Source: an uncultured Clostridia bacterium (GTDB lineage: Bacteria > Bacillota > Clostridia > TANB77 > CAG-508). From it: a stretch of DNA of 64,000 nt. Numbering within the stretch: position 1 is the stretch's first letter; every line of letters begins with the position of its first letter. The notes beneath the pieces were generated by a model. The model made no database searches. It was not told the origin of the DNA and was given only the letters and a program-made list of their open reading frames with translations. The translations under genes were made by a program, and so were the position numbers. Where the stretch lies: contig CAKOWY010000007.1 in NCBI GenBank assembly GCA_934129895.1, positions 20,107 to 84,106 of the forward strand, given 5' to 3'. Below are positions 21,051 through 56,738 of the stretch, in pieces.

Positions 21051-21368
21051 ATGGAAAAAGACTTCGAAGTTTCTTGCTCTTATGCTTTTTTAGAGCGTGA
21101 ACCGAAAATCACAAAGGAGTCCAACCCGCATCTCGCTGCCAAGTTTTACAAGGATTTGGCAAACGATCTTTGCTATTCTCTCTACACTCAGAAGAACTAC
21201 TCGCAGATGTGCCAACTGCTCAGCTTTGTTGCACTGTGCAACGGTAGAGTAAAACTCTGTGAAAAGAGTGGTTGTATCATCAGCATGGTCTTTTCCTTTA
21301 CGGACCAAGGGAACTCTCAGGAGTTTTTGGAATACGTAAAACAGCTCAATGTGAGCATTGTTAATTAA
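21051..21368 (+). CDS. small orphan protein B (105 aa, 8 Cys), GC-rich
   Basis: AGGAGG 6 nt before the ATG, and the ORF is followed directly by a hairpin terminator. Confidence 0.55.
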   Translation: MEKDFEVSCSYAFLEREPKITKESNPHLAAKFYKDLANDLCYSLYTQKNYSQMCQLLSFVALCNGRVKLCEKSGCIISMVFSFTDQGNSQEFLEYVKQLNVSIVN

Positions 21369-21378
21369 AAATTGGCAA

Positions 21379-21416
21379 AGAGAAGGCCCTTTCCTAACGG
21401 AGAGGGTCTTCTCTTA
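21379..21416. terminator. rho-independent terminator (probably bidirectional) between the orphan module and the nrdD 3-prime end
   Basis: AGAGAAGGCCC ... GGGTCTTCTCT stem, then TTATTTA. Confidence 0.6.
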
Positions 21417-21422
21417 TTTATT

Positions 21423-23549: not shown

Positions 23550-23629
23550 ATTATTACCTTCCTCTCAAGTGTACTTTTTATTTTTTTCTTTTAAGTACAA
23601 GTCAATTATACCTTTTATTTTTCAAAAAT

Positions 23630-23645
23630 CTGTTGCAATTGCAAC
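23630..23645. promoter_or_regulatory. perfect 16-bp palindrome TGTTGCAATTGCAACA in the nrdD / crp-fnr divergent region, a candidate operator
   Basis: Perfect dyad. It contains a TTGCAA -35-like hexamer placed 17 nt before TGTATAAT (23653-23660), which points toward the regulator gene. Confidence 0.45.
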
Positions 23646-23754
23646 AATTTTAATGTATAATCTTTTTGGAAATTTCATAATATATTGTCTAATATTTATG
23701 TTGAATTATCAGTATTTTGAAATTTCAAGCTTATTCAATTTTGGAGATATTTTT

Positions 23755-24384
23755 ATGGAAACAAATTTCAATAAAAAAAATTTTATAGAAAATTTTAAAT
23801 CAAGTTGTGATAAAATACAAATAAAAAATTTTGATAAAGGTGAAACAGTTACTAACTATATCGAAAAGCGTAACCAAATCTGCATAATTTTAAATGGAGA
23901 GGTTGATTTAATAAGGTATGATGTCAATGGTAATAAAACTATTATTGGACGTTTTTCAAATAATGATGTTTTTGGAGAAGTTTTCTACCCAGCAAATACT
24001 AATAATGAACTTTTTGCAGTTGCCAAAAAGAAATCTGAAATTTTATTTTATACTTATGATTCTCTTTTTAATAAATGTAAAAAAAATTGTGAATTTCATA
24101 AGGAACTTATAAGTTCTCTCGGAGAATTATTTCTTGATGAAATTATAGATTTAAACTTGAGAATAGAACTTTTAACTAAAAGAAATATAAGAGAAAAACT
24201 TTTATCTTATTTTGATATTTTATCAAAGGGTTCTATGGTAAAATCATTTACAATTCCATATAATTATACTGATTTAGCAGATTTTTTAAGTGTAGATAGA
24301 AGTGCTATGATGAGAGAAATTAAACTTTTAATTGATGATGGATTTGTAAAAAAAGATGGGAATAAAATTACTTTACTATACTAA
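23755..24384 (+). CDS. Crp/Fnr-family transcriptional regulator
   Basis: cNMP-binding-like beta-roll followed by a C-terminal HTH (TDLADFLSVDRSAMMREIKLL). GGAGA RBS before the ATG at 23755. The upstream part of the track ORF is antisense to nrdD and is discarded. Confidence 0.8.
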   Translation: METNFNKKNFIENFKSSCDKIQIKNFDKGETVTNYIEKRNQICIILNGEVDLIRYDVNGNKTIIGRFSNNDVFGEVFYPANTNNELFAVAKKKSEILFYTYDSLFNKCKKNCEFHKELISSLGELFLDEIIDLNLRIELLTKRNIREKLLSYFDILSKGSMVKSFTIPYNYTDLADFLSVDRSAMMREIKLLIDDGFVKKDGNKITLLY

Positions 24385-36238: not shown

Positions 36239-37621
36239 CTAAAATTCAACTTTTTCACTTATCCAATTTTCTAATTCATTTATATTTACTCTTACTTGTT
36301 CCATTGTATCTCTATCTCTAATTGTTACTGAATTATCATTTAATGTGTCAAAGTCAACTGTTACACAATATGGTGTTCCTATTTCATCTTCTCTTCTATA
36401 TCTTTTTCCAATTGAACCAGCTTCATCATATTCACACATAAATTTCTTTGATAATTGTTCATAAACTTCTTGTGCTTTATCTGACAATTTCTTTGATAGT
36501 GGTAATACTGCTACTTTATATGGTGCTAATGCTGGATGTAAATGTAATACTACTCTTGTATCACCTTCTGCAATCTCTTCTTCATCATAGGCATTACATA
36601 AAAATGCTAATGCAACTCTGTCTGCTCCAAGTGATGGTTCTATACAATATGGTATGTATTTTTCATTTGTTTCTGGATCTAAATATGTAAAATCTTGATT
36701 TGATTGTCTTGCATGATTTGATAAATCATAATCTGTTCTATCAGCAATTCCCCATAATTCTCCCCATCCAAATGGAAATGCATATTCTATATCTGTTGTT
36801 GCTTTACTATAAAATACTAATTCTTCTGGACTATGATCTCTTAAACGTATATTTTCTTCTTTCATTCCTAATGATATTAACCATTTTTCACAGAATTTTT
36901 TCCAATATTCATGCCACTCTAAATCTGTTCCTGGTTTACAGAAAAATTCAAGTTCCATTTGCTCAAATTCTCTTGTTCTAAATGTAAAGTTTCCTGGTGT
37001 TATTTCATTTCTGAAAGCCTTACCTATTTGTGCAATTCCCATTGGTAATTTTCTTCTTGTTGTTCTCATTACATTTTTGAAGTTTACAAATATTCCTTGT
37101 GCTGTTTCTGGTCTTAAATAGATTTCTGCTTTTGCATCTTCTGTTACACCTTGAAATGTTTTGAACATTAAATTAAATTTACGAATTGATGTAAAATTGT
37201 GTTTTCCACAATTTGGACAACAGATATTATTATCATCTAAAAATTTTATCATTTCTTCATCTGTCATTCCATCTGCAATCATGTCTTTTCCTTGTTCGTG
37301 TGCCCATTCTTCTATTAATTTATCTGCTCTATGTCTTGTTTTACATTCTTTACAATCTATAAGTGGATCTGAAAATCCTCCAACATGTCCTGATGCAACC
37401 CAAGTTTGTGGATTCATTAATATTGCTGCATCTAATCCAACATTATATTTGCTTTCTTGAATAAATTTTTTTCTCCATAATGCTTTTACATTATTTTTTA
37501 ATTCTACCCCTAGAGGTCCATAATCCCATGTATTTGATAATCCTCCATAAATTTCTGATCCAGGATATATATATCCTCTTGCCTTACACAAATTTACTAT
37601 TGTGTCCATTGATTTTACCAT
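36239..37621 (-). CDS. glyQS: glycine--tRNA ligase (alpha2 type)
   Basis: Class II aaRS motifs, 460 aa, and a T-box leader upstream. Confidence 0.9.
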
Positions 37622-37624
37622 TTT

Positions 37625-37880
37625 TTATTCCTCCTTATTTTTTGCTAGTTACTGAATTATAAAATAAAAACTTTCATTCCTAGCAATACTAAAAATATTG
37701 CTAGGGACGAAAGTTTAATTTCCGCGATTCCACCCTAATTCTAAAAAACTATATTAAAGCTTTTTAGCACCTTAATTTATATTACTCCAAAGCTCCCCTC
37801 ATGATTTCTATTACTAATTTTCCACCATATATTAGCTCTCTATAAATATCTATCATAATTTTTCTTTTTCATTGTAATCT
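37625..37880 (-). promoter_or_regulatory. T-box riboswitch leader of glyQS
   Basis: On the minus strand, AATTAGGGTGGAATCGCGG (plus 37721-37740) is the T-box consensus. It is followed by a terminator hairpin AAACTTTCGTCCCTAGCAATA / TATTGCTAGGAATGAAAGTTT plus a T-tract (plus 37667-37714). Confidence 0.8.
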
Positions 37881-37907
37881 TATTAAATTGTTTATATTAT
37901 ATGATTT

Positions 37908-45327: not shown

Positions 45328-47252
45328 GATTTATTCACCCCATTTATTATATTTTCTTCATCTAACCCATATATCTTTTCAAGTTCATCAACACTTCCAT
45401 GTTTTATGAATTCATCAGGATATGCATAACTTTTTATTTTTACTCCTTGCAAATTATTATTTACAATTAGTTCTTTTACCGCTGTGGCTAATCCATTTAT
45501 AATAGTTCCATCTTCTATTGTTATTACATTTTTAGTTTTCTTAATACTTTCAATTATTGTATTATTATCTAATGGTTTCAAAAATCTTGCATTTATAACT
45601 TCAACATCCATCTTTTCTTGCAGTTTTTGTCCTATATCCATTGCTCTTGCAACCATTTTTCCAATTGCTATTATAGTTACTCTTTCTTTTTGTGTTTTGT
45701 TATTAAATACTTTATCTCCAATCTTTTGTAATATTTTTGTTTTACTTGATTTTTCTTCATTTATAATTTTCTTTAAAACTTCTGCTTTTCCCAATTCAAT
45801 TTTTTCATGTCTTTCGAATTTTACTTTTGAATCTTCTCCTCCACGAGGATATCTAATAATTACTGGCCTATTTAATTTTACTGCAAATTCTAACATATCT
45901 TCTAATTCTTTAAAATCTTTTGGTGCCATTATTGTTAAATTAGGAACAAGTCTGAAAAATGCCATATCTAATGTTCCTTGATGTGTTTCTCCGTCTGCTC
46001 CAACACATCCAGCTCTATCTACGCACATAATTACTGGCAAATTTTGCATTGCAACATCATGTATAACTTGATCATATGCTCTTTGATAAAATGATGAATA
46101 TATTGGTATTACAGGTATCATTCCTTCTTTTGCCATTCCTGCAGACATTGTTATAGCATGTTGTTCTGCAATTCCTACATCAAAAAATCTTTTTGGAAAT
46201 TCTTTTTGGAATTCTCTAAGTCCTGTTCCATCTTTCATTGATGCTGTAACAGCAACTATTTTTTCATTCTCTCTTGCTAGTTTTACCAATTTTTCTCCAA
46301 ATATTTTAGAATAGTCTGCTTTTTTCGCTTTTTTTAGTTCTCCTGTTTCTATATTAAATGGAGATGTTGCATGAAATCTATCTGGATTTTTTTCTGCTAT
46401 TTTATATCCTTTTCCTTTTTTTGTTAATACATGTATTAAAACTGGTCCTTCTATTTCTTTACTTAGTTTTAATATACTTTCTAATTTTTCAATATTATGC
46501 CCATCAACAGGTCCTAAATATGTAAAACCTATATCTTCAAAATACATTCCTCTTATTACTAATTGTTTACATGCTCTTTTGAATCTTTGAATAATCCTTA
46601 CCAATTTATTTCCTACAACTGGCAATTTATTTAATTTGTTTTTTATTAATTTATTGGTTCGAGTATATAATTTTTTGGTTCTTAGTGTACTTAAAAATTG
46701 ATTTATCCCACCTATATTTTTTGCAATACTCATTTCATTATCATTTAATATAACTGTTAAATTACAATTACTACATCCTGCATCATTTAAGGCTTCTAGT
46801 GCCATTCCACCTGTTAATGCACCATCACCAATTACAGCTATACAAGAATTCTTTTTTCCTTGTAAATCTCTTGCTCTAGCCATTCCTAATGCTGCTGAAA
46901 TTGATGTACTACTATGTCCTGTATTAAAACAATCTGCATCTGATTCATTGCTTTTAGGAAAACCTGCAATTCCATTTAGTTTTCTTATATTTTTTAATTC
47001 TTCTCTTCTTCCAGTTATAATTTTATGTACATAACTTTGATGTCCTACATCCCATACTATTTTGTCTTCTGGAACGTTAAATACGGAGTGTAGTGCTATT
47101 GTTAGCTCTACCACTCCTAAATTTGATGCTAGATGTCCTCCATTTTCAGATACTACATCTAATATATATTTTCTTATTTCTTCTGCTAATTGTTTTTTTT
47201 GCTTTTGTGTTAGTTTTTTTACATCTTGTGGTGAATTTATTTGTTCTAACAT
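45324..47252 (-). CDS. dxs: 1-deoxy-D-xylulose-5-phosphate synthase
   Basis: Thiamine-diphosphate motif GDGALTGGMALEALN, the N-terminal SPQDVKKL motif, and 642 aa. Confidence 0.9.
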   Translation of the reverse strand: MLEQINSPQDVKKLTQKQKKQLAEEIRKYILDVVSENGGHLASNLGVVELTIALHSVFNVPEDKIVWDVGHQSYVHKIITGRREELKNIRKLNGIAGFPKSNESDADCFNTGHSSTSISAALGMARARDLQGKKNSCIAVIGDGALTGGMALEALNDAGCSNCNLTVILNDNEMSIAKNIGGINQFLSTLRTKKLYTRTNKLIKNKLNKLPVVGNKLVRIIQRFKRACKQLVIRGMYFEDIGFTYLGPVDGHNIEKLESILKLSKEIEGPVLIHVLTKKGKGYKIAEKNPDRFHATSPFNIETGELKKAKKADYSKIFGEKLVKLARENEKIVAVTASMKDGTGLREFQKEFPKRFFDVGIAEQHAITMSAGMAKEGMIPVIPIYSSFYQRAYDQVIHDVAMQNLPVIMCVDRAGCVGADGETHQGTLDMAFFRLVPNLTIMAPKDFKELEDMLEFAVKLNRPVIIRYPRGGEDSKVKFERHEKIELGKAEVLKKIINEEKSSKTKILQKIGDKVFNNKTQKERVTIIAIGKMVARAMDIGQKLQEKMDVEVINARFLKPLDNNTIIESIKKTKNVITIEDGTIINGLATAVKELIVNNNLQGVKIKSYAYPDEFIKHGSVDELEKIYGLDEENIINGVNKS

Positions 47253-56703: not shown

Positions 56704-56738
56704 ATAAACAGGCAGGAGCTATAGCTCCTGCCTGTTTA
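56704..56738. terminator. perfect hairpin terminator between addA start region and the GC-rich orphan gene
   Basis: AAACAGGCAGGAGC TATA GCTCCTGCCTGTTT followed by ATTT. Lies 8 nt past the orphan gene stop. Confidence 0.7.

Follow-up and report, generated by a model that had tools for sequence, protein, structure and literature searches.

In Escherichia coli, the class III ribonucleotide reductase (RNR) genes nrdDG are regulated by FNR, control by Anr and Dnr has been described in Pseudomonas, and NrdR is a common repressor of RNR genes (PMC4009431). Beyond NrdR, little is known about the control of class III RNRs in strict anaerobes outside the Proteobacteria, where FNR and Anr/Dnr operate, and our literature search yielded no paper on Clostridia or other Firmicutes in which a Crp/Fnr regulator is tied to nrdD, and none that connects this gene with a TGTTGC/GCAACA motif. 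This work deals with a stretch of 64,000 nucleotides from an uncultured Clostridia bacterium (contig CAKOWY010000007.1, positions 20,107 to 84,106; hereafter the window), in which nrdD and a gene for a Crp/Fnr-superfamily regulator are transcribed divergently on either side of a perfect 16-bp palindrome, hereafter the operator. Taken together, comparative and positional evidence makes it likely that the adjacent Crp/Fnr dimer acts on this palindrome, activating nrdD in a class II arrangement and repressing its own promoter P1.

With respect to function, this arrangement resembles E. coli FNR at nrdDG (and yfiD/grcA), which likewise combines a Crp/Fnr dimer, a palindrome upstream of a class III RNR gene and a link to redox conditions (PMC4009431). 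FNR is however a global regulator with Cys20, Cys23, Cys29 and Cys122 as cluster ligands and a TTGAT-N4-ATCAA site, whereas the window regulator is local, has no N-terminal Cx2Cx5C motif, carries Ser94 at the position of Cys122 (hhalign) and shares its operator with its own divergent promoter. CRP proper is no better match, as the half-site reads TGTTG and not TGTGA, and the cAMP contacts Arg82 and Ser83 of CRP are replaced by Asn84 and Glu85 (hhalign).

With respect to DNA recognition, the nearest published relative of the operator appears to be the motif predicted for HcpR2 of Clostridium thermocellum, nTGTTGnAnnTnCAACAn, a single shared site in the divergent hcpR/frdX-hcp intergenic region (PMC1274295, Table S1). 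Both regulators are local and divergent from their target, rely on one shared palindrome, carry a serine at the position of CRP residue 181 (Ser183 in the window protein) and share the outer half-sites TGTTG...CAACA. They differ in their targets, frdX-hcp (nitrosative stress) in one case and nrdD in the other, and in the inner bases of the site, C6 and G11 being invariant here. In the comparative study of Rodionov et al. (2005), the residues at CRP positions 180, 181 and 185 correlate with the bases of the half-site, and HcpR2 proteins with Ser181 have deviant motifs (PMC1274295); in our profile alignment, R180, E181 and R185 of CRP fall on R182, S183 and R187 of the window regulator. The common HcpR2 motif GTAAC-N4-GTTAC, which goes with Pro181, has the same 5-N4-5 layout as the window operator and different bases (PMC1274295). 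The co-localisation with hcp/frdX that characterises HcpR2 is not found either, since nrdD is the neighbour in all 79 informative loci (see below) and no hcp lies beside the ten distant family members that were sampled. The HcpR proteins of Clostridioides difficile (242 aa; GGAT-N6-ATCC) and Porphyromonas gingivalis (heme) are unlike the window system and offer no matching motif. HcpR2 of Desulfovibrio desulfuricans, an Fe-S Crp-family sensor of nitric oxide (NO) and O2, gives a precedent for Fe-S sensing by a Crp-family protein other than FNR; it is modelled as a repressor relieved by damage to the cluster (PMC5701242). As far as its sequence features go, the window system is thus like FNR-nrdDG in function and like the Ser181 branch of HcpR2 in DNA recognition, and the features that define FNR, CRP and strict HcpR2 are absent from it.

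The identity of the two genes is clear. The nrdD product contains the Pfam domains ATP-cone, NRDD and Gly_radical and matches the NCBIfam model for NrdD (NF006732) at 946 bits, and the regulator belongs to the Crp/Fnr superfamily, with PF00027 at 41 bits (above its cut-off) and PF13545 at 22.8 bits (just below its cut-off of 27). Open reading frames (ORFs), Pfam and NCBIfam therefore agree with the original prediction that a divergent nrdD and a Crp/Fnr-family gene flank the palindrome. The perfect 16-bp dyad is likewise real, although it sits one base to the right of the position first given (23630-23645), with its GTTGC-N4-GCAAC core at 23632-23645 and its centre at 23638.5. A distance of about 85 nt to nrdD had been proposed; measured to the nrdD ATG, it is 81 nt from the edge of the site and 89 nt from its centre. 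No nrdG was found in the whole 64-kb window, nor following nrdD in the lineage of the window (L001-L037). As a separate observation, nrdG lies directly 3' of nrdD in 21 more distant loci and elsewhere within the locus in L038.

Taken alone, the palindrome is statistically unremarkable. Four perfect 16-bp palindromes occur in the window, which has a G+C content of 27%, against about three expected from first-order Markov simulations, and 20% of the simulated windows contain at least one such palindrome with at least six G/C. Its significance comes wholly from conservation and geometry. A one-genome-per-species scan retrieved 80 loci with relatives of the regulator (56-80% identical to the window protein), all from metagenome-assembled genomes (MAGs) of uncultured Clostridia that live in the gut or rumen and have a low G+C content, among them 'Clostridium sp.' CAG:571, CAG:575 and 26_21. 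Every one of the 79 loci with DNA upstream of the regulator has nrdD as its divergent neighbour, and (T/A)GTTGC-N4-GCAAC(A/T) is present in 78 of the 79 intergenic regions, whose length varies from 109 to 499 bp. Among 94 compiled sites, with the consensus TGTTGC-Awwt-GCAACA, each of the ten core bases is kept in 93 or 94, which confirms that the operator is neither an FNR (TTGAT-N4-ATCAA) nor a CRP (TGTGA-N6-TCACA) box. The C at 23630, which adjoins the operator on the nrdD side, is conserved as well. The central four bases vary without constraint between tetramers rich in A/T (AAAA in 22 sites, ATTT in 20, AAAT in 20, AATT in 17, ATAT in five, others or singletons in the rest). Conserved half-sites around an unconstrained centre point to the site of a dimeric protein and not to shared ancestry or an RNA stem.

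The distribution of the motif is equally telling. In 632 kb of fetched DNA, 84 of the 85 exact copies of GTTGC-N4-GCAAC fall within nrdD-regulator intergenic regions, which make up 3% of that DNA (binomial P of about 1e-125, relatedness being ignored). The 85th copy (L047:998-1013) lies downstream of nrdD-nrdG, has a TATAAT 20 nt away and precedes a second nrdD paralogue. This paralogue (L047:1-941, minus strand) therefore has an operator copy of its own. The palindrome is thus conserved in orthologous intergenic regions and recurs in other genomes before a second nrdD and before other redox genes, and with the unbroken synteny, the conserved half-sites and the fixed spacings to both -10 boxes, the comparative data uphold the idea of a dedicated, autoregulated Crp/Fnr regulator-operator pair for a class III RNR.

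A quite different reading of the dyad, as an RNA hairpin, a bidirectional terminator or a chance palindrome, is extremely improbable. A terminator scan does flag both strands, with a stem of 6-7 bp followed by a T-run, and about three perfect palindromes of this size are expected per window in any case. The operator however lies between the divergent starts and both -10 boxes, upstream of both predicted starts, and hence should not be transcribed. Moreover, variants with a single altered arm (GCGACA, ACAACA and GCCACA) are not compensated in the other arm, and chance cannot account for conservation in 78 of 79 regions with fixed spacing. An Rfam scan of the intergenic region gave no family at the gathering threshold nor at E ≤1, which excludes known riboswitches, the B12 type among them.

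The geometry on the nrdD side is that of an activator-dependent promoter. In the window, a perfect TATAAT follows the operator at exactly 20 nt; 68 of 78 relatives have it at this same distance and nine more at 21-23 nt. No hexamer lies at a usable -35 spacing from it, the nearest being the TTGCAA within the operator, which is 22 nt from the -10 and too far away. With a predicted start near 23597-23598, the operator would cover roughly -48 to -33 and would be centred at -40.5 (start 7 nt past the hexamer) or -41.5 (8 nt). In class II promoters activated by FNR, the site lies near -41.5 or -40.5 and overlaps or replaces the -35 element. In Bacillus subtilis, Fnr is a Gram-positive class II activator with sites at the same two positions, and resembles the window system in this activation geometry; its C-terminal cysteine cluster and TGTGA-N6-TCACA site are both absent here. 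The perfect -10, the lack of a usable -35 and a centre at about -40.5, all as in class II activation by FNR and CRP, together argue for activation of nrdD. In the mechanism that we propose, the dimer of the regulator encoded alongside would bind the operator and act on both promoters at once, and its class II contact with RNA polymerase from about -40.5 would recruit the enzyme to nrdD.

The same regulator and operator could instead serve to repress both divergent promoters until released by a signal. The position of the operator, which overlaps the -35 and spacer of the regulator promoter as well as about -48 to -33 of the nrdD promoter, would suit such a repressor, as would the repression model for D. 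desulfuricans HcpR2, in which damage to the cluster by NO leads to derepression (PMC5701242). This alternative is nevertheless unlikely. The nrdD promoter, with its only candidate -35 (TTGCAA) 22 nt away, should be weak in the absence of an activator, although nrdD probably encodes the principal or sole RNR in these reduced genomes. Furthermore, the exact 20-nt spacing has been kept over 35-80% identity and in front of different targets, as activation from one face of the helix requires, whereas occlusion needs no such constancy.

On the regulator side, activation of nrdD would be coupled to autorepression. In 71 of 78 relatives, a hexamer with at least five of six matches to TATAAT begins exactly 9 nt past the site, so that a half-site of the form TTGCAn would serve as the -35 with a spacer of 17 nt. 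In the window, the predicted P1 consists of the -35 TTGCAA at 23633-23638 and the -10 TATAAT at 23656-23661, 17 nt apart. The promoter-like TTGCAA-17 nt-TATAAT that had been noticed earlier is thus present, but its -35 is supplied by the left half-site and not by the right one (23639-23644), which is just 11 nt from the TATAAT. The extended -10 also ascribed to it does not hold up: in TGTATAAT, the TG directly abuts the hexamer, out of the TGnTATAAT register, the promoter scan records no TG before it, and most relatives have AATATAAT at this place. The operator centre would lie near -29.5 of P1, over its -35 and spacer, where a bound dimer should exclude RNA polymerase and so hold down synthesis of the regulator. 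The -10 boxes of nrdD and P1 are 45 bp apart in the window, and a single operator serves both, as it does in other short intergenic regions. By contrast with this compact layout, 15 long intergenic regions contain two sites, one per promoter, each with its own spacing, a split that would be difficult to account for if either spacing were irrelevant; the two copies would there divide activation and autorepression between them.

Downstream of P1, the regulator leader has features of its own. Between 23662 and 23754, close relatives share a conserved TTTCATAAT, a second -10-like GTATAAT about 40 nt past the operator (candidate promoter P2) and a conserved ATGTCGAATTTTG block; the in-frame ATG at 23698 in the corresponding block of the window gives rise to 228-aa database variants of the regulator. 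Loci of the L047 type have a single -10 followed by the same TGTCGAATTT block. At the same leader position, L038, L039, L041, L054, L056, L060 and L061 have three or four TGTAATA direct repeats with a period of about 11 nt, and L053, L062, L069, L074 and L078 have TTATTACAAAT(A/T)TATTACA and then TTTGTCGAATTTT. These blocks and repeats suggest that the leader contains a second promoter, the site of another factor, or both. In three close relatives (L010, L012 and L024), operator and regulator ATG are separated by 97-98 bp and not by 107-108 bp, which is about 10 bp or one helical turn less, and the deletion falls between P1 and the second -10-like hexamer.

The regulator itself shows the predicted order of secondary structures of its superfamily, with a beta-roll of the cNMP-binding type, a long dimerisation helix and a C-terminal winged helix-turn-helix. 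Foldseek returns NtcA, CRP, CprK and Clr as top matches (E of about 1e-12), which is uninformative beyond the superfamily, and a profile search of the PDB gives Crp-family matches only, all remote, the best being a Thermotoga Crp-family protein (E = 1e-7). No specific NCBIfam model recognises the protein, every match falling far under its cut-off. An exhaustive HMMER search nevertheless places it in a sizeable family, with 1547 clusters (50% identity) at E ≤1e-10. Cys18, Cys43, Cys108, Cys112 and His115 are invariant in all 80 orthologues, and among the 129 full-length representatives in the best 150 matches, 87 keep Cys18 and the Cys108-x3-Cys112-x2-His115 motif. Cys43 is special to the clade of the window. 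In 45 of these 87 Cys3-His relatives, a cysteine occupies the position equivalent to FNR Cys122. The recognition helix (V)DRSAMMRE, which reads V-D-R182-S183-A-M-M-R187-E in the window, is also widely kept among the representatives. To judge from these alignments, the family is a large, clostridial and experimentally uncharacterised branch of Crp/Fnr, defined by Cys3-His and DRSAMMRE.

How this family is deployed can be seen from ten distant members that share about 35-45% identity with the window regulator. Three of them, one from a Ruminococcus sp., are divergent from nrdD-nrdG-dcd, and two from a rubredoxin gene, whose operon in one case continues with hemerythrin and a flavodiiron/NADH:rubredoxin-oxidoreductase fusion. 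For four (L090-L093), the next genes on the regulator strand are of the DHODB_Fe-S_bind and Fer4_20/Pyr_redox_2 types (NfnAB-like), and two of these regulators (L090 and L092) are in addition divergent from an 87-aa gene resembling the glycyl-radical C-terminus of NrdD; one of the ten has no obvious partner gene. The operator follows the regulator into most of these contexts. In the three nrdD-nrdG-dcd loci (L081, L085 and L087; about 37% identical), AGTTGC-N4-GCAAC(A/G) is accompanied by a -10 at +9 and by TATACT at +21. The rubredoxin-hemerythrin-flavodiiron locus (L083) has TGTTGCATTTACAACA with TATAAT at +20 towards rubredoxin, and in L090 and L092, on the side of the small NrdD-like gene, TATACT lies at +21 from TGTTGCACCTGCAACA. 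The operator of L088, where the regulator stands alone, has a -10 at +9 only, and that of L089 is degenerate. Between the regulator and the NfnAB-like genes of L090-L093, no operator was found.

These data bear directly on whether another transcription factor might bind the dyad, with the Crp/Fnr gene as an incidental neighbour. Dyads of the 5-N4-5 and 6-N4-6 types are used by several families, and binding by the Crp/Fnr protein is here a prediction. The pairing of regulator and operator however persists from one target to another (nrdD, the rubredoxin operon, the small NrdD-like gene) and extends to regulators of about 35% identity, including the solitary one of L088, which ties the site to the Crp/Fnr protein and makes another factor very unlikely. 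The TGTTG half-site also fits an Arg-Ser-x3-Arg helix according to the published residue-base correlation (PMC1274295).

The small NrdD-like gene deserves a word of its own. In L090 (3549-3983) and L092 (3552-3815), it encodes an 87-aa protein that ends like the glycyl-radical C-terminus of NrdD (...RIRRITGYLVGDMSHWNDAKAAEERDRV...), behind the same operator. By analogy with GrcA/YfiD, which plays this role for pyruvate formate-lyase, it may be a stand-alone spare part for a class III RNR cleaved by O2.

What the regulator senses can be approached from its conserved residues. With the cAMP contacts of CRP missing and the 'NTNNE' loop conserved within the clade of the window only, the family-wide candidate sensor is the Cys3-His set. 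From its invariance, from the kind of targets (a glycyl-radical enzyme that is labile to O2, and iron proteins that scavenge O2 or NO) and from the Fe-S precedents in the Crp family, we infer that this motif holds an Fe-S cluster or a metal-thiolate centre reporting O2, NO or redox state. Cys18, Cys108, Cys112 and His115, together with Cys43 in the window clade, would thus form the sensor, and synthesis of the O2-sensitive glycyl-radical RNR would be tied to its signal.

Several points weigh against class II activation of nrdD combined with autorepression and redox sensing. The 80 loci are related MAGs, so that the counts drawn from them are non-independent, and the exact GTTGC-N4-GCAAC motif has a single copy in the 64-kb window. 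The predicted -10 boxes are consensus matches within DNA of 27% G+C, and with a start 7 nt past the hexamer, the operator centre is at -40.5 and not at the canonical -41.5. If P2, conserved in the clade of the window, is used, the operator centre would be about 61.5 bp upstream of its start, where class I activators sit, and autoregulation may then be more complex than plain repression. As for the sensor, the Cys3-His motif could equally be a structural zinc site. An AlphaFold2 model built from a 16-sequence alignment confirms the fold (predicted local distance difference test score, 68), with the loops around residues 78-82 and 106-111 scoring below 50, too poor for Cys-Cys distances. The DNA-binding form is ambiguous too: the detoxification targets of the paralogues argue for activation by oxidants, whereas the analogy with FNR, from which an anaerobic regulator had first been proposed, argues for the opposite. 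A form that binds on oxidant exposure would also be sensible for replacing NrdD cleaved by O2.

In the same vein, a broader role can be proposed for the family as a whole, which we regard as possible rather than probable. The widespread clostridial Crp/Fnr proteins with the Cys3-His, DRSAMMRE and GTTGC-N4-GCAAC signature might represent, among Firmicutes, the equivalent of FNR for glycyl-radical chemistry, coupling an O2, NO or redox signal to nrdD, nrdDG-dcd, the spare part for the NrdD C-terminus and the rubredoxin/hemerythrin/flavodiiron genes. In genome-reduced gut Clostridia, the system would be a switch of two promoters by one operator for their only RNR. These abundant, uncultured bacteria with small genomes probably obtain most or all of their deoxynucleotides through class III RNR, which O2 destroys irreversibly. 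If the Cys3-His set proves to be an O2/NO sensor of a new kind, the Crp/Fnr superfamily would gain a sensor type, and it would become clear how gut anaerobes couple the supply of DNA precursors to transient exposure to O2 or NO. The mechanism proposed here is precise and cheap to test, as it names the operator to the base, both promoters and their predicted starts, the expected signs of regulation and four candidate sensor residues, and the Cys3-His family also occurs in cultivable relatives such as Ruminococcus. Besides, the conserved operator motif can be used directly for regulon annotation in thousands of MAGs.

Finally, we considered whether nrdD is additionally or mainly under NrdR, the situation of most bacteria. 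NrdR resembles the window regulator in providing dedicated transcriptional control of RNR genes; it differs in being a zinc-ribbon and ATP-cone protein that senses ATP/dATP and binds tandem 16-bp boxes over the promoter, none of which is credible here. An NrdR-box-like sequence had been pointed out in the intergenic region, and the match of 13/16 to the consensus stands (at 23675-23690, not 23676-23691), which together with the role of NrdR as a common RNR repressor (PMC4009431) speaks in favour of such control. Its significance does not stand: with up to three mismatches, the window contains this one match against 3.2 expected by chance. The 16-mer has T at position 4, a strongly conserved C of the consensus, and is single, without a tandem partner. 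Its place is on the side of the regulator, off the nrdD promoter and some 80-95 bp ahead of the predicted nrdD start. In relatives, the same columns are conserved promoter-like hexamers, CATAAT...GTATAAT, of the regulator leader. A tblastn search of the window and the 80 loci with an E. coli NrdR query gave no match, a result that is silent on the rest of the genome. Control of nrdD through this box is therefore highly improbable, and regulation through the operator by the adjacent Crp/Fnr protein is preferred.

Coordinates of the features of the nrdD-regulator locus (window positions)
Feature	Coordinates	Strand	Basis or remark
nrdD, class III (anaerobic, glycyl-radical) ribonucleoside-triphosphate reductase, 708 aa	21423..23549	minus	ORF, Pfam and NCBIfam
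nrdD Shine-Dalgarno region GAGAGGAAGG	23557..23566	minus	sequence; GGAGG-like blocks at the same place in relatives
nrdD predicted -10, TATAAT	23605..23610	minus	exactly 20 nt past the operator
Operator TGTTGCAATTGCAACA	23631-23646	strand-less	perfect 16-bp palindrome read from the sequence
Regulator predicted promoter P1	23633..23661	plus	promoter scan, 10/12
'NrdR-like box' TCATAATATATTGTCT	23675..23690	plus	13/16 to acaCwAtATaTwGtgt; judged not to be an NrdR site
Candidate regulator promoter P2, -10-like TCTAAT (GTATAAT in close relatives)	23688..23693	plus	status uncertain
Conserved leader block ATGTTGAATTATCA (relatives ATGTCGAATTTTG(TA))	23698..23711	plus	alignment of relatives
Regulator Shine-Dalgarno, GGAG	23743..23746	plus	sequence; GGAGG conserved ahead of the ATG in relatives
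Crp/Fnr-superfamily regulator, 209 aa	23755..24384	plus	ORF; Pfam cNMP_binding and HTH_Crp_2

Elsewhere in the window, a looser search for TGTTG-N6-CAACA with at most one mismatch gave 11 matches against 2.6 expected; the extra matches are without the GC...GC core, none lies in a promoter, and we attribute them to composition or codon effects. Next to nrdD, a region of 760 bp (20661-21422) separates its stop codon from a gene for a YkuD-type L,D-transpeptidase and contains a 105-aa ORF (21051-21368, plus strand) that has no Pfam match and is conserved in tblastx only in L002 and L003. A T-box leader (37700-37881, minus strand) lies upstream of glyQS (36239-37621), with 74.7 bits and E = 1e-16; its score is under the Rfam gathering score of 93, hence it was missed in the gathering-threshold scan. 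Among the other perfect palindromes, AGGATATATATATCCT (37562-37577) matches the profile of C. difficile HcpR (PMC1274295, Table S1) and was dismissed as it falls within the glyQS coding sequence, and TTAATACATGTATTAA (46424-46439) is within the dxs gene. The palindrome AGGAGCTATAGCTCCT (56714-56729), flanked by a 110-aa ORF and a gene for an AddA-like helicase, could be a terminator or an operator.

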